From an uncultured bacterium (GTDB taxonomy: Bacteria > Bacteroidota > Bacteroidia > J057 > JADKCL01): DNA of 64,000 nt. Location of the stretch: positions 119 through 64,118 of the forward strand of contig CAWUKT010000031.1 of the NCBI GenBank assembly GCA_963923035.1, read 5' to 3'. Numbering within the stretch: position 1 is the first letter of the stretch; every line of letters begins with the position of its first letter. The notes beneath the pieces were generated by a model. The model had not been told where the DNA came from and did not search any database. It saw only the letters and a program-made list of their open reading frames with translations. Shown in pieces: positions 31,993 through 42,445 of this stretch. The translations under genes and the position numbers were made by a program.

Positions 31993-33897
31993 TCAGACGA
32001 GTGCACCCGCTTTGATCTCGTCGACCACATCCGGGTCGAGCAAGGTCGAGGTGTCACCCAAGTTATCGGCCGTACCTTCCGCCACTTTGCGGAGGATGCG
32101 GCGCATAATTTTTCCACTTCGCGTTTTCGGCAACCCGCTCACAAACTGAATCTTCTCGGGCCGCGCAATTTTCCCAATCACATCCACCACCGACTCCACA
32201 ATTTCGCCGCGGACCGTTTCCGGATCCACATCGCCATCTTTCAAAATCACATACGCATAGATGGATTGGCCCTTGATCGGGTGGGGATAGCCCACCACCG
32301 CCGATTCGACGACCCGCTTGTTCAGGTTGATCGCATTCTCGATTTCGGCCGTGCCCAGGCGGTGTCCCGAGACGTTGATGACATCGTCCACCCGGCCGAT
32401 GACCCGGAACAGGCCATTGGCGTCGCGCTTGGCACCGTCACCGGTGAAATAGTGGCCATTGAAGGCGCTGAAATAGGTATTGCGGCAGCGTTCGTGGTCG
32501 CCCCAGGTCGTCCGCAGGATCGACGGCCAGGGATGCTTGATGCACAAGAGGCCTTCCTGCTCATTTTCGGTGATTTCATTGCCGTCCGGGTCGAGCAGGA
32601 CCGGCTGGATGCCCGGCAAAGGAAGTCCCGCGTGGCACGGATTCATGGGGCTATGCGCCCCCAGCCCGGACAGCATGATGCCGCCCGTCTCTGTTTGCCA
32701 CCACGTATCCACAATCGGACAACGCTCCTTGCCCACGTGCAGGTGGTACCAGTTCCAGGCCTCCACATTGATGGGCTCGCCAACGGTCCCCAAAACCTTG
32801 AGGGAATCCAGGCTATAACTCAGGACGTGGTCCAACGGATAGGCCATGAGGGCCCGAATGGCTGTCGGAGCGGTGTAAAACTGGTTGACGCTGTGCTTGT
32901 CGACGACCTGCCAGAAACGGCCGGGATCCGGGTAGGTCGGAACCCCTTCGAACATGACCGTGGTCGCTCCCGCCGCGAGTGGGCCGTAGAGGATATAGCT
33001 GTGGCCGGTGATCCAACCAATGTCAGCAGTACACCAGTAGATATCGCTTTCTTCGTATTGGAAGACGTTGGCGAAGGAATAGGTCGTGTAGACCATGTAG
33101 CCGCCGGTGGTATGGACGACGCCCTTGGGTTTGCCGGTGGAGCCGGAGGTATAGAGGATGAACAAGGGATCTTCCGAGTCCATTTCTTCGGCCGGGCAGT
33201 CCGATCCGATGCCTTCGAGGGCGTCGTGGAGCCAAACGTCCCGTCCTTCGACCATATTGGGTTCCCAACCGAGGTGCTGGGCGACGAGGACGGTTTCCAC
33301 CGAATCGCAGGACTTGAGGGCCTCATCGACGACCCGCTTTGCGGGAATTTGCTTCGCGCCGCGGGCGATGCCGTCGGCGGTGATGACCATCTTGCAGGTT
33401 GCATCCTGGATGCGGTCCGCGAGGGCTTTGGCGGAGAAACCGGCAAAGACCACCGAGTGGATGGCGCCAATCCGGGCGCAGGCCAGCGTGGCAAAGGCCA
33501 GTTCGGGGATCATGGGCATGTACAGGCAGACGCGGTCGCCTTTTTGGATGCCGTGGGCTTTCAGGACGTTTGCGAATCGTCCGACTTCAGCGTGCAGTTC
33601 CTTGTAGGTATAGCGGCGGACCTTGTCGGTCGGATCATTGGGTTCCCAAATCAGGGCGATCTTGTTGCCGCGGGTTTCCAGGTGTCGGTCCAGACAGTTT
33701 TCGGTGATGTTCAGTTTGCCGCCGATGAACCATTTGACATCGGGCCCTTCGAAGTCCCATTCCAGGACCTTGTCCCATTTCTTTCGCCATTGGAACTGGG
33801 AAGCAATGCCGCCCCAGAACTCTTCGGGGTTGTCGACGCTGTGTTGGTATGCTTCCTGGTACGCTTCGAATGATTGGAGTCGCAAATCCATAGCCAT
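31993..33897 (-). CDS. acs: Acetyl-coenzyme A synthetase
   Basis: YTSGSTGKPKG, TADIGWITGHSY, DTWWQTETG, PKTRSGKIMRR. Confidence 0.97.
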   Translation of the reverse strand: MAMDLRLQSFEAYQEAYQHSVDNPEEFWGGIASQFQWRKKWDKVLEWDFEGPDVKWFIGGKLNITENCLDRHLETRGNKIALIWEPNDPTDKVRRYTYKELHAEVGRFANVLKAHGIQKGDRVCLYMPMIPELAFATLACARIGAIHSVVFAGFSAKALADRIQDATCKMVITADGIARGAKQIPAKRVVDEALKSCDSVETVLVAQHLGWEPNMVEGRDVWLHDALEGIGSDCPAEEMDSEDPLFILYTSGSTGKPKGVVHTTGGYMVYTTYSFANVFQYEESDIYWCTADIGWITGHSYILYGPLAAGATTVMFEGVPTYPDPGRFWQVVDKHSVNQFYTAPTAIRALMAYPLDHVLSYSLDSLKVLGTVGEPINVEAWNWYHLHVGKERCPIVDTWWQTETGGIMLSGLGAHSPMNPCHAGLPLPGIQPVLLDPDGNEITENEQEGLLCIKHPWPSILRTTWGDHERCRNTYFSAFNGHYFTGDGAKRDANGLFRVIGRVDDVINVSGHRLGTAEIENAINLNKRVVESAVVGYPHPIKGQSIYAYVILKDGDVDPETVRGEIVESVVDVIGKIARPEKIQFVSGLPKTRSGKIMRRILRKVAEGTADNLGDTSTLLDPDVVDEIKAGALV

Positions 33898-33980: not shown

Positions 33981-34364
33981 TTATGAACCAGGTTGATCCA
34001 GGAGGACTTTTACTTTCTTCATCAGATCACGGGTCGAAAAGGGTTTGGGAACGTAGAGGTCAGCCCCCAGCGCCAATCCCTTTTCAATGTCCGCCTCTTT
34101 GCTCTTGGCCGACATGAAAACCACTTTGCAGGCTGCGAGCCGTTCCGTCGAGCGGACATATTCGCAGACCTCGTAGCCATTCACCTTGGGCATCATGATG
34201 TCCAGCAGCAGCAAGTCCGGAGAATGGTCATTCAGCAGCGCCAACGCTTCTTCCCCGTCCCGTCCCACAAACACCTCGTAGCCCTTTCGGCGAAAGAGGT
34301 AGTCCAGGGACATGACGATATTGGGCTCGTCGTCAACAATCAGCACCTTGTGGGGAGTCTTCAT
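33981..34364 (-). CDS. Stand-alone response regulator receiver protein
   Basis: 127 aa; LIVDDE, LLDIMMP, SA, KPF; no output domain. Confidence 0.92.
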   Translation of the reverse strand: MKTPHKVLIVDDEPNIVMSLDYLFRRKGYEVFVGRDGEEALALLNDHSPDLLLLDIMMPKVNGYEVCEYVRSTERLAACKVVFMSAKSKEADIEKGLALGADLYVPKPFSTRDLMKKVKVLLDQPGS

Positions 34365-34367
34365 GGG

Positions 34368-37084
34368 CTATTTTGAGGCTTGGAGGGGAATAAGAAACGA
34401 AAATTTAGCTCCTTTTCCCAACTCACTTTCCACCCACAACGTCCCTCCGTGCAATTCAACAATCTGCTTGCAGATTGCCAAGCCCAAGCCACTGCCGGGC
34501 CGGGGCGCATTCCCCCGGGACCGAACCTGGTAAAATTTATCAAAGATCGATGTTTGCTCATCCGGGGCCAGCCCCTCTCCATTGTCTTCCACATTGACCT
34601 TGATGCTGCGGTCGTAGCGGTACATGGAGACCTCAATGCGCCCTCCGGGCTGGCGGCAGAATTTCAGCGCATTGGTCAGCAGGTTCAACATGACCTGCTT
34701 GAGTTTGTCGGCGTCGCCCTGCAAACGGGGCGCCGAGAGTTGGAGATCGACGACCAGGTCGATCCCCCGTGATTCGGCCTGGGGCCGAATTTCAAAGCTG
34801 ACTTCCTGCACCATCTTCACCATATCCACCTCTGTCAGCAGCAATTTTTGTTTTCCCGACTCGTACTTCTCCAAATCCAACACCAGCGAAATCAGGCGTC
34901 CCATCCGCTCACTCTCCTGCATGATCGTATTCAGAAATTTTTCCCGCTCCTCATCCTCCATGTCTTCCACATCCAACAGCAGCTCGGACAAGGCCAGAAT
35001 GGTTGTTAGGGGAGTCCGCAGCTCGTGGGTGACCGTGTATAAAAATTCATCTTCAACACGTCCTGCTGCTTGAGTTGTTCGTTGACCTCCCGCAGCGCCT
35101 CTGTGGCTTTTTTCAATTCATCTGACTTCTCCTTCAATTCCCGGTTGGTCGTCCGCACCTGTTGGGACTCCCGCAGGATCAGGTATACATCTTCCATGGA
35201 CACCTTTTCTTCCTGCACCACCGTCGAAACCAGGACCCGGGCCGAAGCAGCCCCCACAATTCCCGTCAACAGCTTTTCCGCAAAGGTGATCAGGCGGGCG
35301 TCGGCTTCTTCGTATTGCTCCCAGTCGATCAGGTATTTGCGGGCAAAGACATCAAAAGCGCGCTCCACATACTCCTTTTGGTGAAAATCCTCCAGCAGAC
35401 TGCGGATGTCCGTGACCTTGGCCACCCCGCGCCGGGCAATAGAAGATTCGTAGTATTCCGCGTATTCAAAGATGTCCACGAATACCTCGGCCTGGTTGCG
35501 TTCGACCGAATCCTGCTTGGTAAAGAGGGAAACGCCGACGTAAAGAAGCGTATTGAACAACAGGCTCCAGAAGGTTCCGTGGGAAATGACGTCCAGTCCT
35601 TCCATGCCAAACAGTGCCGTGGGGCGCAGACCGGAAATTCCGCCGAGGCCATCACTGACCAGGGTAGAGGTCCCGAGCAACGAATCGGGCAGGGTAGGGA
35701 GGATCAGGGTGAAAAACCACAGGGCGAAGCCTGCGATGAGTCCGGTGACGGCTCCCCGGCGGTTGCCTTGTTTCCAGAAAATGCCTCCGAGGGACGCGGG
35801 AATAAATTGGGAGACGGCGACGAAGGAGATGAGGCCAATCTGGGCGAGGGAATAAGGCGCGGCGACGAATCGGTAGAACAGATAGGCCAGCAGAATGATG
35901 GCCGCGATGCTGAACCGCCGGGAGTATTGGGCGGTCTTGCCCAATTGGCGGACCCGGTTGCGCAACCGGGGGGCCTTGATCAGGGCCGGCATCAGGATAT
36001 TGTTGCTGAGAGCAAGTCCCAGGGCGATCGAGGAGACGATGATCATGCTGGTGGAAGCCGCAAAGCCGCCGATGAAGGCGATCAGCGCGACGAGGGGTTC
36101 TCCTGAGTCCAGGGGAATGGCCAGCATGAAGATATCGCCCGAGACCGATCCGTCTGGGAAGATAATATTGCCGCCGAGGGCCACGGGCATCACAAAGAAA
36201 TTGATCAGCAGGAGGTACAGGGGGAACATCCAGATGGCCTTGCGCAGGTGATTGGCGTCGGCATTTTCAATGACACCCACCTGGAATTGGCGCGGTAGGA
36301 AAAGAAAAGCGCCCATGGCCAATAATACGAGAAAGAACCATCCGCCGTAGCCTTCGCCCTGGTCGATGTGCAGCAAGCGTTCCAGTTCAGGGTTGTCGGC
36401 CGCAGTTTGGAAGATTTCCCCCAATCCATCGAATGAAAACCAAGCTACAAAGGCGCCCACAATCAGGAAGGCCAGCAATTTCACCACGGATTCGGCGGCG
36501 ACGGCGACTACCAGACCGGCATTGCGCTCGGTAGATTCAATTTTCCGGGTGCTGAACAGGATGGTAAAGAGCGTGAGGAGCAGGGCAAAGTAAAATGCGC
36601 TGTCCTGGAACATGCTGTTGGTTTCTCCATTTCCCCCACTCCAATGCGTCAGGACCTCAAAGCTGTCCGAAATGGCCTTGTGCTGGATGGAGATATAGGG
36701 AATCACCCCCATGACCATGAAGATGGTCACCAAAACCCCGACCCGGCTGCTCCGACCGTACCGGGTCGAAAGAAAGTCCGCAAAAGAAGAAATCCGTTGC
36801 GTCTTGCAGATGCGCATGAAGCGCCGCCAGAAGATCCACGCCAGGGGGATCACCAGGCTGGGACCGATGTAGATCGCAAGGAAGCTCATCCCGTTTCGGG
36901 AGGCATCCCCCACACTTCCGAAGAAGGTCCAGGCGGTGCAGTAAACAGCCAGGGAAAGGCTATAAATCCAGGGGCTCCGGGTCCATTTGCGGCCCCGACG
37001 CGCTTGTTTGTCACCCCAATAGGCGATTCCAAACAGGCCCGTCAGGTACAGGCAGGCTACCGCTATGACCCAGCCTTCATTCAT
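34368..37084 (-). pseudogene. Sodium:solute-symporter-fused histidine kinase (CrbS/CbrA-like), interrupted by a 1-nt frameshift near 35052 (real lesion or sequencing error)
   Basis: SSS domain (SLAVYCTAWTFFGSVG, LPRQFQV) in ORF 35006..37084; H-box DEFLYTVTHELRTPL and HATPase (NLLTNALKF, DNGEG, GSGLGL) in a shifted frame. Confidence 0.88.
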
Positions 37085-37286
37085 GCGCAGCGGACGAGGA
37101 TAAGGGTTTTCGGACGACCAGGAACAAGGTCAAAACGAGGATGGACCAAAAGAGGAAAAACAGCAGGTAGGATCGGGGGAAGGAAGAAGCGGGGACCTGA
37201 TCAAAGAGTTTTACCAAGGGAAAATTGAACAGGAGAAAAGCCACTCCCACCACAAACACGAATTTCCGGCCCAGTGACCGCTTCAT
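37077..37286 (-). CDS. Small 2-TM membrane protein (DUF3311-like partner of the SSS kinase)
   Basis: 69 aa with two hydrophobic segments (LLFNFP...YLLFFLFW); overlaps the kinase start. Confidence 0.7.
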   Translation of the reverse strand: MKRSLGRKFVFVVGVAFLLFNFPLVKLFDQVPASSFPRSYLLFFLFWSILVLTLFLVVRKPLSSSAAHE

Positions 37287-37510
37287 GTGCCGGCCTCCTG
37301 TTCGTTTTTCGGCCCAAACAGGAATTCAAAGTTCAGAAACCTTGCCCTTCCCAGGGCCCACAGGAAGACCAATCCAAATCCACCCAGCGCCACCGAAATC
37401 CAAATCGCGCCGCCCAGTTGGGGCTCGATCAGGAAGCGGAGGAAGAGGGTTCCCAGCATGTAAACAGTTACAAACAGGGCGGACATGCGAGAGGAAAGTA
37501 CCGTTTTCAT
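37283..37510 (-). CDS. Small 2-TM membrane protein
   Basis: 75 aa, two TM segments; 4-nt ATGA overlap with the next gene. Confidence 0.65.
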   Translation of the reverse strand: MKTVLSSRMSALFVTVYMLGTLFLRFLIEPQLGGAIWISVALGGFGLVFLWALGRARFLNFEFLFGPKNEQEAGT

Positions 37511-37602: not shown

Positions 37603-39291
37603 TCAGTGGACGTGGGCATCACCAGCGCCACGCGGTACCCGGATGTCTTCCACCAGATTTTGAACATCAATGGGGGGAGCCGGGGTGCGTCGGGAGACGA
37701 TGTAGGAGACGGCGAAGTTCAGGAACATGCCGAGGGTTCCGATGCCAGCCGGGGAGATGCCGAACAGCCAGTAATCCGGATTGTCGTATTCGGGGAGGAT
37801 GAAACGGAACAGGACAATGTAGACCGTGGTGAAGGCCAGTCCGGTGATCATCCCGGAGACGGCACCCTGGCGGTTCATCCGCTTGTCAAAGATGCCCATC
37901 ACGATGGCTGGGAAGAAGCTCGACGCGGCCAATCCGAAGGCGAAGGCGACCACTTCCGCCACAAATCCAGGCGGATAGATGCCGAGGATACCCGCAACGA
38001 TGACGCCGAAGGCGGCGGCGATCCGGGCGATCCGGAGCTCTTGCTTGTCCGTCATGTTCGGTCGCAACTGCTTCTTGAACAAGTCGTGCGAGACGGACGT
38101 CGAGATGACCAGCAGCAAGCCGGCTGCTGTCGACAAGGCGGCGGCCAAGCCCCCCGCTGCCACAAGGGCCACGACCCAGTTCGGAAGCTGGGCGATCTCC
38201 GGGTTGGCGAGGACCATGATGTCCTTGTCAATGGTCAGCTCATTCTTTTCGGCGCTGCCCACATACTGGATCAGGCCGTCGTTGTTTTTGTCTTCGTATT
38301 TGATCAGACCGGTTTCTTCCCAGTTCACAAACCATTCCGGCATTTCAGAACGGGGCGCATTGTTGACCGTCGCGATGAGGTTGGTGCGGGCAAATGCAGC
38401 GATGGCAGGAGCCGTCGTGTAGAGGATGGCGATGAAGATCAGCGCCCAACCGGCCGACTTCCGCGCGTCCCGGACGCGGGGCACAGTGAAGAAACGTACA
38501 ATTACGTGGGGCAGACCGGCCGTACCGACCATCAGGGCTGCGGTGATGAAGAAAATATCAATGGTGGGTTTCGACCCATCTGTATATGACGCAAAGCCTA
38601 GTTCCTGGTGCAGGCCATCTAATTTGTCGAGGAGGAAGGTGCCATCGGCGACCTCAGACCCGAAGCCCAGCTGGGGGATCGGCGTACCGGTCATCATGAG
38701 CGAGATGAAGATGGCCGGGACCATGAAGGCAAAGATGAGGATACAGAACTGGGCGACCTGGGTATAGGTAATGCCTTTCATTCCGCCCAATACCGCGTAG
38801 AAGAATACAATTGCCATCCCGATGATCACTCCGACATTGACATCCACTTCCAGGAAGCGGGAGAAGACCACCCCCACGCCGCGCATCTGACCGGCGACAT
38901 AGGTAAAGGAGATGAAGATGGCAGCGACCACAGCCACGGTCCGGGCCGTTTGGGAATAGTAGCGGTCACCCACAAAGTCCGGCACCGTGAACTTCCCAAA
39001 TTTTCGAAGGTAGGGCGCCAGGAGTAAGGCCAGGAGTACGTATCCACCGGTCCAGCCCATCAGGTATACAGAGCCGTCGTAGCCGGAGAAGGAGATCAGT
39101 CCGGCCATGGAGATGAAGGAGGCCGCGGACATCCAGTCGGCCGCGGTGGCCATCCCGTTGGCGAGCGGCGGAACCCCGCCCCCGGCCACGTAGAATTCTT
39201 TCGAAGAGCCGGCGCGGCTCCACAAGGCGATCGCGATGTAGAGGGCAAACGTGACGCCTACGATGATATATGTGAGAGTTTGTACATCCAT
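37603..39291 (-). CDS. actP: Cation/acetate symporter (ActP-like, SSS family)
   Basis: NGMATAADWMSAASF, GTAGLPHVIVRFFTVP, AAALSTAAGLLL; adjacent to acs. Confidence 0.85.
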   Translation of the reverse strand: MDVQTLTYIIVGVTFALYIAIALWSRAGSSKEFYVAGGGVPPLANGMATAADWMSAASFISMAGLISFSGYDGSVYLMGWTGGYVLLALLLAPYLRKFGKFTVPDFVGDRYYSQTARTVAVVAAIFISFTYVAGQMRGVGVVFSRFLEVDVNVGVIIGMAIVFFYAVLGGMKGITYTQVAQFCILIFAFMVPAIFISLMMTGTPIPQLGFGSEVADGTFLLDKLDGLHQELGFASYTDGSKPTIDIFFITAALMVGTAGLPHVIVRFFTVPRVRDARKSAGWALIFIAILYTTAPAIAAFARTNLIATVNNAPRSEMPEWFVNWEETGLIKYEDKNNDGLIQYVGSAEKNELTIDKDIMVLANPEIAQLPNWVVALVAAGGLAAALSTAAGLLLVISTSVSHDLFKKQLRPNMTDKQELRIARIAAAFGVIVAGILGIYPPGFVAEVVAFAFGLAASSFFPAIVMGIFDKRMNRQGAVSGMITGLAFTTVYIVLFRFILPEYDNPDYWLFGISPAGIGTLGMFLNFAVSYIVSRRTPAPPIDVQNLVEDIRVPRGAGDAHVH

Positions 39292-39320: not shown

Positions 39321-39581
39321 TTATTGTTCGTCGACATCAAATTCGCGGTCAATGCGGTTCATGCGGACCACATACACGAAGACCAGGATGATGAAGGAAA
39401 AGATGGCTCCTTGTTGGGCAAACCAGAACCCGAGCTTGAACCCTCCGAAGCGGATGGTATTAAGGGGCTCGGCGAGCAGGATGCCAAAGCCGAAGGAAAC
39501 GATGAACCAGATGGTGAGCAGAATCGCCAGCAGCCGTAGGTTCTTCTTCCAGTAACGTTGGGCTTTTTCTTTGGATAACAT
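39321..39581 (-). CDS. DUF4212 small subunit of the solute symporter
   Basis: YWKKNL...LGFWFAQQG...MNRIDREFDVDE. Confidence 0.9.
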   Translation of the reverse strand: MLSKEKAQRYWKKNLRLLAILLTIWFIVSFGFGILLAEPLNTIRFGGFKLGFWFAQQGAIFSFIILVFVYVVRMNRIDREFDVDEQ

Positions 39582-39611: not shown

Positions 39612-40835
39612 TTAGAGGTAGATCATGGCCTGGATGACAGCCTTGCCGGAGCGGTCGCCCGCCGGATTTTGGCTGTTTTGGTACTCAACCGTGACCTTGC
39701 AGTTGTGGCCGTCCAGGTACGCATTGGCACCGATCCCCAAGGTCGAAGACGCATTGGGATTGGCTTCCAGCATCCGGTGCGAGTAGGAGGCGTAGGGCTG
39801 GAGCTTGACCTTTTCGCTGAATTTCGGCGTCAGGTAGCCCAGCTGTCCGTAGACGATATTGCCCGTCCCAATGACGTCGCTCGTACCTTTGAGCAGGTAA
39901 TCGGGACCAAAATTGAAGTTGTAGAAGGCGCCATAGGCCGTGATTGCCGCGCCTTTGGTGCCGATCGGATTGTCGTAGAAGACATCCGCGGCGAGCAGGG
40001 CCACGTCGTTTTGGGCCATGGAGGAATCGGTTTGGAGGGTCGTGGTGCCTTCCGGGTGGTAATTGAAGCCGGCACCCACATTGAGGACCCGCTTGGTGCC
40101 GACATAGGAGCCGACATAGTAGGGGAGGGTATTGCCTTCGCGGTCCCAGAACTGGTAGCTGAAGTAACCGGCGTAGACCTTTCCTCCGTCGTTTTGGTAG
40201 AGGGTTTGGTTGGTTTCGAGCGAAATGCCATCGTCGAGGGTGGTTTGGATGGCTTCGTTGATCGAAACGCGGTAGTCGAGGCGGCCCAGGTTACCCTTGG
40301 CATATACGCCCAGGTGGCGGGCAAATTGGTCGGTCAGGCCCAGGGTGGCCCAGTTGAAACGGGGGGCATCCAGGGTCATCATGTTCAATGTGGATTGGTT
40401 GGTCAGGCGGGAAATGCCATTCCAATAGTGGAGTCCCGCGCCCACGTAGAGTTTCTTGGGGACCACTGTATATTCGGCCCAGGCGTCGTGCATGAAGAGC
40501 TGCGCCTGTGAAGACTGCCCGGTCGGGTGCATATTGGCGGCCGTAAGGCTATTGAGGCCGAAGTGGGTCAGGATGAGGAAGCGGGGAGAAATTTTGGCAA
40601 ACATGAGCACGCGGGAGCGACGCAGCATGGGAATGGACCTCAGGTCGTCATTGGCGTCATTCTGTACGGTGAGCCAAGCCTGGTGCCAGGTGATGAAGCG
40701 GGCGAATTTAGAGCCCTCATCGTTGAGCTTCAGGGTGAGGCCCTTGCCGTAGGTGTCGGAGCCTTGGGAAAAAGTCGGGTAGGCGAGGAAAAGCATGACG
40801 CATCCTATCGCCATTGCCATTGCAATGCGTTTCAT
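39612..40835 (-). CDS. Outer-membrane porin-like protein of the acetate locus
   Basis: Signal peptide, beta-strand pattern, LRRSR and GLHYWNGISR motifs, C-terminal QAMIYL. Confidence 0.75.
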   Translation of the reverse strand: MKRIAMAMAIGCVMLFLAYPTFSQGSDTYGKGLTLKLNDEGSKFARFITWHQAWLTVQNDANDDLRSIPMLRRSRVLMFAKISPRFLILTHFGLNSLTAANMHPTGQSSQAQLFMHDAWAEYTVVPKKLYVGAGLHYWNGISRLTNQSTLNMMTLDAPRFNWATLGLTDQFARHLGVYAKGNLGRLDYRVSINEAIQTTLDDGISLETNQTLYQNDGGKVYAGYFSYQFWDREGNTLPYYVGSYVGTKRVLNVGAGFNYHPEGTTTLQTDSSMAQNDVALLAADVFYDNPIGTKGAAITAYGAFYNFNFGPDYLLKGTSDVIGTGNIVYGQLGYLTPKFSEKVKLQPYASYSHRMLEANPNASSTLGIGANAYLDGHNCKVTVEYQNSQNPAGDRSGKAVIQAMIYL

Positions 40836-40966
40836 AAGCCGTCAAATCTTGTTTTAAGTGAATCAGTGACCCAAGCGGGGTACGAGATGTTTCGCAGAGG
40901 AAATCTGGGGAAAAGGAATTAGGCTACGAAATACGGTATATATATATGCAAACTAAATATATATAG

Positions 40967-41389
40967 CTATCGGAACCGGTCCCAGCGGATCACCATGAAC
41001 TTGTCTCCCAGTTCGGTGATGAGGGCCCCTTTTCCGGCCAAAAACTCTGGCTCAGCCAGATATTCGACCAATTCACTTCGAGAGAGGATACGGTAAGACG
41101 GGCGGTAATTAAAGTCCTGGAGAAACCGCCGAATGCCGTGTTGACGGACCCATTTGCTGACCGTGACGTGACTCACCCCAATGATCCGCTCGATTTCCCG
41201 GTAGCTCAAGCCTTCCAAATAGAGTTGAAGCGCCTTCGTGACGTAGTAAGGGTCGATTTCTTTGCCCTTTTTTTGGACGGTAAAGTGATAAACGCAGCTT
41301 TTACACTTGTAGCGCTGGCGGCCACTGACCTGCCCAGCCTTGACGGTTTGGGGGGATTGACAACGGGGGCAAACGGGATTTTTATTTAT
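40967..41389 (-). CDS. InsA-like Zn-ribbon + HTH protein with extra C-terminal domain, probable transcription regulator; only ATA available as start
   Basis: Frame reads (I)NKNPVCPRCQSPQTVKAGQVSGRQRYKCKSCVYHF...ALQLYLEGLSYREIERIIGVSHVTVSKWV...DKFMVIRWDRFR*; in-frame TAG at 41390-41392; the track shows only the last 83 aa. Confidence 0.8.
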   Translation of the reverse strand: MNKNPVCPRCQSPQTVKAGQVSGRQRYKCKSCVYHFTVQKKGKEIDPYYVTKALQLYLEGLSYREIERIIGVSHVTVSKWVRQHGIRRFLQDFNYRPSYRILSRSELVEYLAEPEFLAGKGALITELGDKFMVIRWDRFR

Positions 41390-41403
41390 CTATATCAATT
41401 TTG

Positions 41404-41411
41404 CAAACATA
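41404..41411 (-). promoter_or_regulatory. -7 promoter element for the InsA-like gene
   Basis: TATGTTTG on the minus strand, 14 nt upstream of the ATA. Confidence 0.55.
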
Positions 41412-41713
41412 TATCAAATTAGCAATAATTGCGTTTAGCTTATTTGTTTTTGTCCTCAACAATAAGTATTAATTGATTGTTTTTCAGTTGTTTGTGGGGT
41501 TTTCAAATTGTTTGCCCTTCCCCCCTGAAAAAACTCCGCTCCCCTTTCGTACCCCTCTATTTTTCCTGACAACCATCAGTTTTGGAAATGACCAATGTCC
41601 TTAAAGGGGCGGAACTCCAATTGAGGGTGCATTGGAATTGACCAAACTCATCTGGGTGGAATTGTGGGATTTATTGTATTTTGAGTTGTTGCTGTATTGA
41701 AAATCCATTGATT

Positions 41714-42445
41714 ATGTCAGATTGGAAGCCCGTTTACGTGGTGAAGGATGGAAATTCCAAGCCGCTACCCCCTCCTGCCTCTCCTCCTAAGCGTCCCCGC
41801 AAGAAACGTCGTTGGGGCCGTCGCATCTTGGGTTACTCATTTGTCATTGTGGTCCTGTTTGGGAGCGGACTGGCGATTGGTCTGGCGGAAGACAATGAAG
41901 CGGAGGAATATTTTGAGGAAGCGGGGGTACGGATTTTCTCTGATGCCTTGGGGGGGAAGGATGAAGGAACTGGAGGGGATATGGAAGTGAATGGGGTTGG
42001 GAGCAACATCGAATTGAAAAATGCCAGCGCAAGTCTACCCATTGATACGGTTTTTCTGGATTCAAGGCTCTTAAAAGAAAGAAACCAGCCTATTCAATAC
42101 CTTTTTGATCCCAATTATACGTTTTACCCAGATTGGAGAAGTGTCATCGAAAAGAGTAGCTGGCAAAAGGATCCTCACTTTGTGAAAAGAATGGAAGAGA
42201 GAGATATATCAATGTCTGAAATTGAAAGAGTGCTCAGTGCTGGTTATATATCTCGTTTCAGTTGGGAGTTTTTCAATGATTCTTCGAGGGCATATCGACC
42301 CAGATATACTTTAAGGCTTGATCAAGGAAGAAAGAACTCGTTGGCAGTAGTATTTGAGATTTCCCAGAAGTTGGATGAAATTCTATTGATAACAACGTTT
42401 AGAAGCCAAAATAAAAACAAGCGAAATATGAAGAACTGGCCATAA
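41714..42445 (+). CDS. Single-pass membrane protein with C-terminal DUF4258-like domain
   Basis: Pro/basic N-terminus, one TM, C-terminal HFVKRMEERDISMSEIERVL...LITTF; AT-richer than neighbours. Confidence 0.65.
   Translation: MSDWKPVYVVKDGNSKPLPPPASPPKRPRKKRRWGRRILGYSFVIVVLFGSGLAIGLAEDNEAEEYFEEAGVRIFSDALGGKDEGTGGDMEVNGVGSNIELKNASASLPIDTVFLDSRLLKERNQPIQYLFDPNYTFYPDWRSVIEKSSWQKDPHFVKRMEERDISMSEIERVLSAGYISRFSWEFFNDSSRAYRPRYTLRLDQGRKNSLAVVFEISQKLDEILLITTFRSQNKNKRNMKNWP

Follow-up and report, generated by a model that had tools for sequence, protein, structure and literature searches.

Eukaryotic transcription factors such as FHY3/FAR1, THAP/ZBED, and CENP-B originate from transposases: the host has reused the DNA-binding domain of the transposase, in some cases together with sites derived from the ends of the element. 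Transposon-derived regulators are also already known in bacteria, and the available text of PMC10705468 describes TldR, transcription factors derived from TnpB of IS200/IS605 elements that find their targets by RNA guidance. Two other described systems are close to the locus studied here. The InsA protein of IS1 binds the ends of the element by means of a zinc finger plus a helix-turn-helix (HTH) and represses the promoter with which the left repeat overlaps (PMC12428005, available part), and IS1-family elements with the slippery site in the DDE domain are found, e.g., in plasmids NZ_CP091425.1, NC_019972.1, and CP116298.1. The CrbS/CrbR (MxtR/ErdR) system serves Vibrio and Pseudomonas as an acetate switch (PMC5715377, PMC5436829, PMC7918813), in which CrbR activates from its own motif, located a short way upstream of the core promoter, according to the available sections of PMC5715377. 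The accessible text of PMC5715377 and PMC5436829 does not mention Bacteroidota, and that of PMC7918813 notes only SSS kinases there. Our literature search, with subscription papers mostly outside its coverage, found no paper on the protein family described below or on acetate regulation in Bacteroidota.

Within a 64,000-nucleotide stretch of Bacteroidota DNA, in the following called the window, the first-pass annotation had proposed an InsA-like protein as a regulator of an acetate operon. Comparisons of the sequences suggest that the product of this IS-derived ORF-A is probably a transcription factor dedicated to the acetate cluster and binding boxes derived from the terminal repeats of the element. 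The gene and the parts of its protein are:

40967..41389, reverse strand: domesticated IS1-family ORF-A (InsA-like) product, 140 aa, ATA start
41294..41371, reverse strand: C4 zinc ribbon, residues 7–32 (Pfam/NCBIfam; four Cys invariant in 52 aligned rows)
41141..41251, reverse strand: three-helix HTH, residues 47–83 (predicted helices 47–58, 63–70, and 74–83)
41045..41083, reverse strand: residues 103–115, relic of the first DDE motif and slippery site (gap-free alignment to ELDEMHTYIGxKK)
41006..41044, reverse strand: residues 116–128, going back to the tail that the IS ORF-A has in the unshifted (out-of-frame) reading (frame scoring)

The open frame of 140 codons contains CPRC..GRQRYKCKSC and LYLEGLSYREIERIIGVSHVTVSKWV, and the zinc ribbon and HTH of the InsA type recognized in the first pass are confirmed by matches to Pfam Zn_ribbon_InsA (E 1.2e-5) and HTH_23 (E 9.4e-6) as well as to the NCBIfam IS1 transposase model (residues 7–91, E 3e-22, below cut-off). 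Structure comparison of the HTH gave middling scores, with Tc3 and IstA chains at Z 5.4 and GcrA at Z 6.0; Lrp/AsnC rows were rejected, as they rest on the HTH only with an rmsd of about 12. The recognition helix region is invariant among aligned family members. The first codon of the gene is ATA and is immediately preceded by an in-frame TAG. A 98%-identical strain retains the ATA, and 10 of its 11 differences in the gene are synonymous and 1 nonsynonymous, so the gene is maintained; non-ATG starts are found in 6/82 family loci. The C-terminal domain could be modeled as strand-helix-hairpin at pLDDT 85, but its fold found no clear counterpart in structure comparison (best Z 5.0), and the whole-protein model had no Foldseek match at E ≤ 0.001. 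A profile search with the C-terminal domain gave 38 matches among 1.84 billion representatives, the 10 inspected being family members, fragments, or one repetitive protein, and the 12 matches of a search for longer proteins containing the family included no informative fusion. An atlas search returned a DDE_Tnp_IS1 cluster at 0.92, which we treated as a lead only.

The gene is almost certainly of IS origin on the evidence of its sequence. IS1-family transposases that turned up in a search of plasmids match 94% of the protein length, and over positions 4–134 the family profile aligned with the ORF-A of two IS1 elements from plasmids (E 1e-31 to 1e-33). The likeness to InsA and these elements comprises the C4 zinc ribbon and HTH, a near-identical QALQLYLEGL..R.I.R.LGVSHV segment, and the ORF-A tail. 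Related IS elements have an A6–7 run just 3′ of the first DDE motif, from which the –1 frame reads on as YCWIWIAVDR in 69/75 parsed loci and the unshifted frame gives a short tail. The C-terminal domain of the family can be aligned gap-free, first with the beginning of the DDE domain and from there on with this unshifted tail: the domain that the first-pass annotation had placed instead of DDE is present but itself IS-derived. When 39 family sequences were compared with 22 IS sequences, the mean BLOSUM sum for the 13 columns after the slippery site was +25.7 in the unshifted frame, –0.7 in the transposase frame, and –15.2 in frame +1; the unshifted-frame score was reached by none of the 2,000 column shuffles (null maximum 18.9). 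The last 12 residues of the family protein match every IS frame poorly.

The reading frames also indicate the direction of the change. Nucleotide entropies by codon position are 0.41, 0.15, and 0.51 in the IS and follow the transposase frame, so the tail is a by-product there; the corresponding values in the family are 1.70, 0.81, and 0.28, the highest one falling on the unshifted frame's wobble position. As the constraint lies in the transposase frame in the IS and in the unshifted frame in the family, the direction is fixed from IS to host gene. Asp occupies the catalytic column in 73/75 IS and in 2/82 family members (Ser105 in the window protein), the slippery A6 run is seen in 22/22 IS vs. 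1/39 family sequences, and the –1 frame is interrupted by stops in 32/39 family sequences. In agreement with the earlier report of no DDE (InsB) frame, a DDE-like motif was found in none of the 84 oriented family loci within 1.2 kb. A tree inferred with a quick method from 107 columns, leaving the tail out, placed the 39 family rows in one clade (SH-aLRT 99), with the near IS group as its weakly supported sister (support 80 only). The IS loci (L133–L216) form an IS1-family subgroup of about 730–755 bp in which the slippery run falls within the DDE domain; they come from archaeal, gammaproteobacterial, and Bacteroidota records, and have an unshifted product with a 30–40 residue tail. In the family, unlike in these elements, the tail has been shortened and folded into a conserved domain selected in its own frame. 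In this family, part of a folded domain would have originated in the frame that a programmed frameshift leaves as a by-product, and the family differs from FHY3/FAR1, THAP/ZBED, and CENP-B in being bacterial and operon-local and in having a domain partly from an alternative reading frame.

The gene is directly upstream of the acetate cluster and co-oriented with it, as described in the first pass, and lies 131 nt before the porin gene that opens the cluster:

39612..40835, reverse strand: porin-like outer membrane protein, encoded at the head of the cluster (NF040900 porin E 6e-18, below cut-off; cluster of 71 loci)
39321..39581, reverse strand: DUF4212 small symporter subunit (Pfam/NCBIfam)
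37603..39291, reverse strand: VC_2705-family sodium/solute symporter, ActP-related (TIGR03648 above cut-off; ActP models below cut-off)
37077..37510, reverse strand: two small membrane ORFs of 75 and 69 aa (comparable small ORFs before the kinase in relatives)
34368..37084, reverse strand: CrbS-like histidine kinase fused to SLC5, interrupted in the assembly by a frameshift near 35050
33981..34364, reverse strand: single-domain response regulator, receiver only, without output domain
31993..33897, reverse strand: acetate-CoA ligase, acs (TIGR02188 above cut-off)

The kinase of the relatives is one ORF of about 900 aa, and as the contig of a related strain has one extra base at the frameshift site, the split reflects either an assembly error or a recent loss. 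As in CrbS/CrbR, a histidine kinase fused to SLC5 is encoded next to acs and an ActP-related transporter, and the operator, as predicted below, is just upstream of the core promoter. In contrast to CrbS/CrbR, the kinase lacks PAS and receiver matches (the intact kinase of relative L001 matches SSF, HisKA, and HATPase only, with no PAS or C-terminal receiver), the receiver forms a single-domain protein of its own, the conserved cluster genes within 10 kb include no LuxR-type CrbR, and the box motif is unrelated to ACTU. By analogy, the system resembles CrbS/R logic built from different parts. The transporter swaps among three families (SSS with DUF4212, MFS with DUF6814, and a SatP-type acetate transporter), the gene still being first. 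Upstream of the gene, at window positions 41681–42445, there is a divergent, AT-richer gene with a DUF4258 domain, the position of which is not conserved in relatives.

A protein search gave 1,925 matches among 1,932 candidates. The best 120 matches listed have 96–100% query coverage and 57–99% identity, and all named ones are from Bacteroidota. The expectation that annotation pipelines would mislabel the gene was borne out, as database labels of the members read IS1 transposase or IS1/IS1595 zinc-binding domain protein, including “Transposase IS1 family” in Flavobacterium psychrophilum; an estimated 1,900 or so genome stretches labeled as IS1 transposase probably represent a host gene. The gene is single-copy in the source genome, and a full-length match was found in 21/401 sampled genomes of the phylum, with one copy in each of the 21 carriers. 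Its presence is patchy: only 3 among 41 close genomes carry it, and it is absent from 2/2 congeners searched. For the locus comparisons, we used the 80 best of at least 592 confirmed GTDB loci; being the closest ones and many of them from Flavobacterium, they do not give independent counts. The acetate cluster (porin, transporter, CrbS-like kinase, lone receiver, and acs) is directly downstream in 78 of these 80, the exceptions being a contig end and a F. psychrophilum locus with another gene. The median dN/dS is 0.02 (36 nonindependent pairs, dS 0.05–1) and that of the C-terminal domain 0.034, in comparison with 0.04 for the receiver and 0.06 for acs. The mean identity across orders, computed from 30 dereplicated loci, is about 65% for the gene, 56% for the receiver, and 45% for the kinase. 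The single-copy orthologs, the synteny with acetate genes, and the low dN/dS that the first-pass annotation had anticipated were thus all found and support the exaptation of a transposase module, the role as a transcription factor being the probable interpretation. Vertical inheritance stands in part: the distances of the gene and the kinase are correlated, if modestly (Mantel 0.36), but the presence is patchy.

The earlier statement that terminal inverted repeats are missing did not hold. An imperfect inverted pair of 28 nt, 79% complementary, flanks the gene at 40938–40965 and 41387–41414. To score boxes, we built a matrix from positions 5–21 of 19 dereplicated IS terminal repeats, using no family DNA. 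The elements around the gene are:

41409..41425, reverse strand: box 1, upstream copy of the inner IS terminal repeat without the GG tip, candidate operator (IS-only matrix)
41404..41411, reverse strand: predicted sigma-A –7 box at the junction of boxes 1 and 2, fitting TAnnTTTG
41390..41406, reverse strand: box 2, the other tandem copy, next to the start codon and 19 bp past box 1
40946..40962, forward strand: box 3, inverted, in the region of the porin promoter just past the stop codon, candidate activator site

Box 1 is identical to an IS left repeat at 15/17 bases and has the top score in the 7.39-Mb genome, and box 2 matches a single IS repeat at 15/17 bases. Box 3, in the right-repeat orientation, matches IS right repeats at 13/17 bases; its score of 14.4 is tied fourth in the genome and was exceeded in 0/30 shuffles. 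Box 3 lies within TA dinucleotide runs (window 40936–40969) in which a related strain has two bases fewer, and its spacing to the porin promoter may therefore vary by slippage. We scanned the 100 nt before the zinc ribbon in 82 loci, including the window and one duplicate. The best upstream match is in the left-repeat orientation in 80/82 loci, the two best matches are exactly 19 bp apart in 71/82, and the upstream box beats all 30 dinucleotide shuffles in 66/82 (mean 13.0 vs. 1.1 bits). The octamer at the box junction fits TAnnT[TA][TC]G in 73/81 loci and the strict TAnnTTTG in 17, the –7 consensus being taken from the available part of PMC9723704. None of the 82 loci has a GG tip on the upstream boxes or a tipped repeat near the gene (5/82 have a match, all >1.7 kb away, vs. 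55/75 IS loci), and with the tips lost, the element ends cannot be defined at the gene. By the tested features, the family is not an IS, as it has no DDE domain, slippery site, GG-tipped repeats, or multiple copies; the doubling of the box at 19 bp is a further difference from the IS1 elements, with which it shares the inner terminal-repeat sequence and a promoter overlapped by the box (binding predicted here).

The signal is weaker downstream. The best downstream match is in the right-repeat orientation in 66/82 loci but beats all 30 shuffles in 16/82 only, and a matrix trained on the upstream boxes is significant downstream in only 21/82 loci, reflecting the varying spacing. An unguided motif search of 51 dereplicated spacers recovered the inverted box (information 11.7 vs. 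7.5–7.7); a regular expression composed after viewing the data, which misses the window, counted it in 35/51 (shuffle maximum 3). In a global test, tracking of the next start by the downstream box could not be told apart from tracking of the stop codon; the box is often directly adjacent to the stop codon and has low scores. In split clusters, where porin-kinase-receiver-acs is inverted 7–9 kb away, boxes are found before the porin in 4/4 cases, in tandem in three, and seven long spacers have the inverted box 104–172 nt before the porin start; these cases suggest that the inverted box behaves as a promoter element. TT[TC]G is found 56–60 nt past the inverted box in 26/44 loci, with the consensus TA in just 1, and in the window there is no clear –7 box at the usual distance from box 3.

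The boxes accompany the gene. Tandem boxes are absent from 8/8 loci having the sensor but not the gene (best score –5.6) and present in 4/5 held-out carrier loci, with scores of 26–41. The tandem pair is unique in the source genome; among five genomes, the pattern occurs once in three, twice in one with a split cluster, and as one two-mismatch match in G441. The source genome has 15 single boxes scoring ≥11, three of them local, and the 9 inspected among the 12 nonlocal ones, several inside genes, show no link to acetate. Taken together, the comparisons support that the whole unshifted ORF-A product and the terminal-repeat boxes were taken over, beyond the DNA-binding module. As in TldR, a transposon protein without catalysis would have turned into a host transcription regulator; unlike the RNA-guided TldR (PMC10705468, available text), this one derives from a DDE element, is predicted to bind DNA by protein-specified recognition, and has its own DNA sites co-taken. 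The locus is a traceable bacterial case in which a DDE-transposon protein and its DNA sites would have become a host regulator together, with the direction given by reading-frame evidence.

The sensor kinase is present in 35 of the same 401 genomes and lies within 5 kb of the gene in 20/21 carriers. Genomes of the same class with the sensor have the gene in 19/20 cases, and those of other classes lack it in 14/15. Neither requires the other everywhere, as carriers G374 and G441 have no sensor match and 15/35 sensor genomes lack the gene. In classes without the gene, the same sensor is found with different outputs: downstream of the sensor and lone receiver there is a 717-aa protein with a DEDDh exonuclease domain (L094:4440–6593 and L100:14049–16208) or a sigma-54 response regulator (L097).

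The protein is very probably a regulator of the acetate cluster, and in the simplest mechanism it would be the unshifted ORF-A product of a frameshifting IS1-family element that became a host protein while the catalytic part was lost. Its zinc ribbon and HTH would bind the boxes as InsA does the IS1 ends, and the tandem boxes over the gene's own –7 box would provide autoregulation; both are the simplest inference given that the InsA protein parts, the boxes, and the promoter overlap have been kept. At the operon, the inverted box 56–60 nt before a weakened –7 box has a fixed upstream position that points to activation, and an activator role is, over all the readings, likely. The least sure step is the signal route, which may run from the CrbS-like kinase via the lone receiver to the C-terminal domain. 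With a CrbS-like kinase, a receiver without an output domain, and no conserved LuxR gene nearby, the protein would be the natural output, standing in for the missing CrbR output domain and offering its C-terminal domain as a candidate input surface. Co-occurrence makes a link between the protein and the receiver conceivable, and we propose it tentatively; complex predictions of the two gave 0.49, 0.01, and 0.01 and were counted neither for nor against interaction. A broader, also tentative scenario is that the whole IS1 control circuit, the repressor and the boxes of both ends, was domesticated once, in the ancestor of Bacteroidia or in a mobile acetate cluster, as the output of a CrbS-type two-component system in which the kinase-phosphorylated lone receiver docks on the domain born from the out-of-frame tail and turns the repressor into an activator of acetate uptake. 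The family provides a candidate regulator and a candidate operator for acetate use in many aerobic Bacteroidota, in which a CrbS-like sensor has no evident output.

Expression data touch on the F. psychrophilum ortholog. At this locus (L061:9950–14163), the gene and both box sets have been kept before a T9SS-secreted protein, and the genome has no sensor match. The ortholog has an ATA start and is annotated from a later GTG, which removes part of the zinc ribbon. According to the available parts of PMC9723704, the expression of the ortholog rises from log2 of about 5.5 to 11–12 in stationary phase, on plates, and in water, its downstream neighbor rises along with it in stationary phase and starvation, and acsA, located elsewhere, stays near log2 11–12; Table S2, as available, has no start site under the locus tag of the ortholog or of the neighbor. 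These data show a regulated, transcribed gene, not acetate control, and simple autorepression fits them poorly; the gene may have been rewired at this locus.

Other readings of the same features can be weighed against a cluster activator. With the same origin and binding, the protein could repress the operon until a metabolite or the receiver in its phosphorylated form lifts the repression. InsA itself is a repressor (PMC12428005, available part), the tandem boxes overlap the gene's own –7 box, and G374 showed no inverted box past the gene, whose own promoter may also serve transcription of the transporter and acs. Yet, the operon box is about 50–65 nt upstream of the inferred start and at a fixed distance from a TA-less –7, the usual layout of activators, and CrbR activates from just upstream of the core promoter (PMC5715377, available sections), for which we consider repression of the operon unlikely. 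Less likely still is that the protein controls only its own IS-derived promoter, captured for read-through into the operon, and that the downstream box is left over from the right repeat. The frequent position of that box next to the stop codon and its weak scores would fit this, as would the joint expression of the F. psychrophilum gene and its neighbor in the supplements of PMC9723704 and the lack of a start site under either tag in the available Table S2. A relic, however, would not persist across orders, and inverted boxes are found again at promoters set apart from the gene and at positions distant from the stop codon, with a constant spacing to a –7-like element.

The protein–box binding is a prediction, and being AT-rich, the boxes could suit other proteins; if they were bound by another host factor, the protein would have some other role in the cluster, e.g., as a partner of the receiver or kinase. 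We regard this as very improbable, as the boxes correspond to the terminal repeats of precisely that IS subgroup from which the protein descends, they co-occur with the gene, and the recognition helix region does not vary. The database labels, the patchy presence with the absence from both congeners searched, and the ATA start and frameshifted kinase in the window could suggest an ordinary decaying IS fragment or a still-mobile nonautonomous element that carried the cluster. For the family, this is refuted, with a negligible chance left to it: the gene is single-copy at a fixed position with a dN/dS of 0.02, its mean identity across orders is above those of the kinase and receiver, and tipped repeats are rare and distant, in contrast to the IS loci. 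The reading as a host regulator of the acetate cluster, likely an activator, is the one we favor.

Some loci show related sequences in other states. L109:6400–7120, in a genome without a sensor match, has a decayed copy of the gene and one strong box before an intact porin. Two short zinc-ribbon/HTH genes of 117 and 99 aa, both in genome G362 (L101:6293–6646 and L102:5711–6010), have no DDE or boxes and are remnants or another domesticated family. At L104:6054–7238, an IS1-type zinc ribbon is fused to a full LacI-family regulator, possibly a second, independent reuse of the ribbon.
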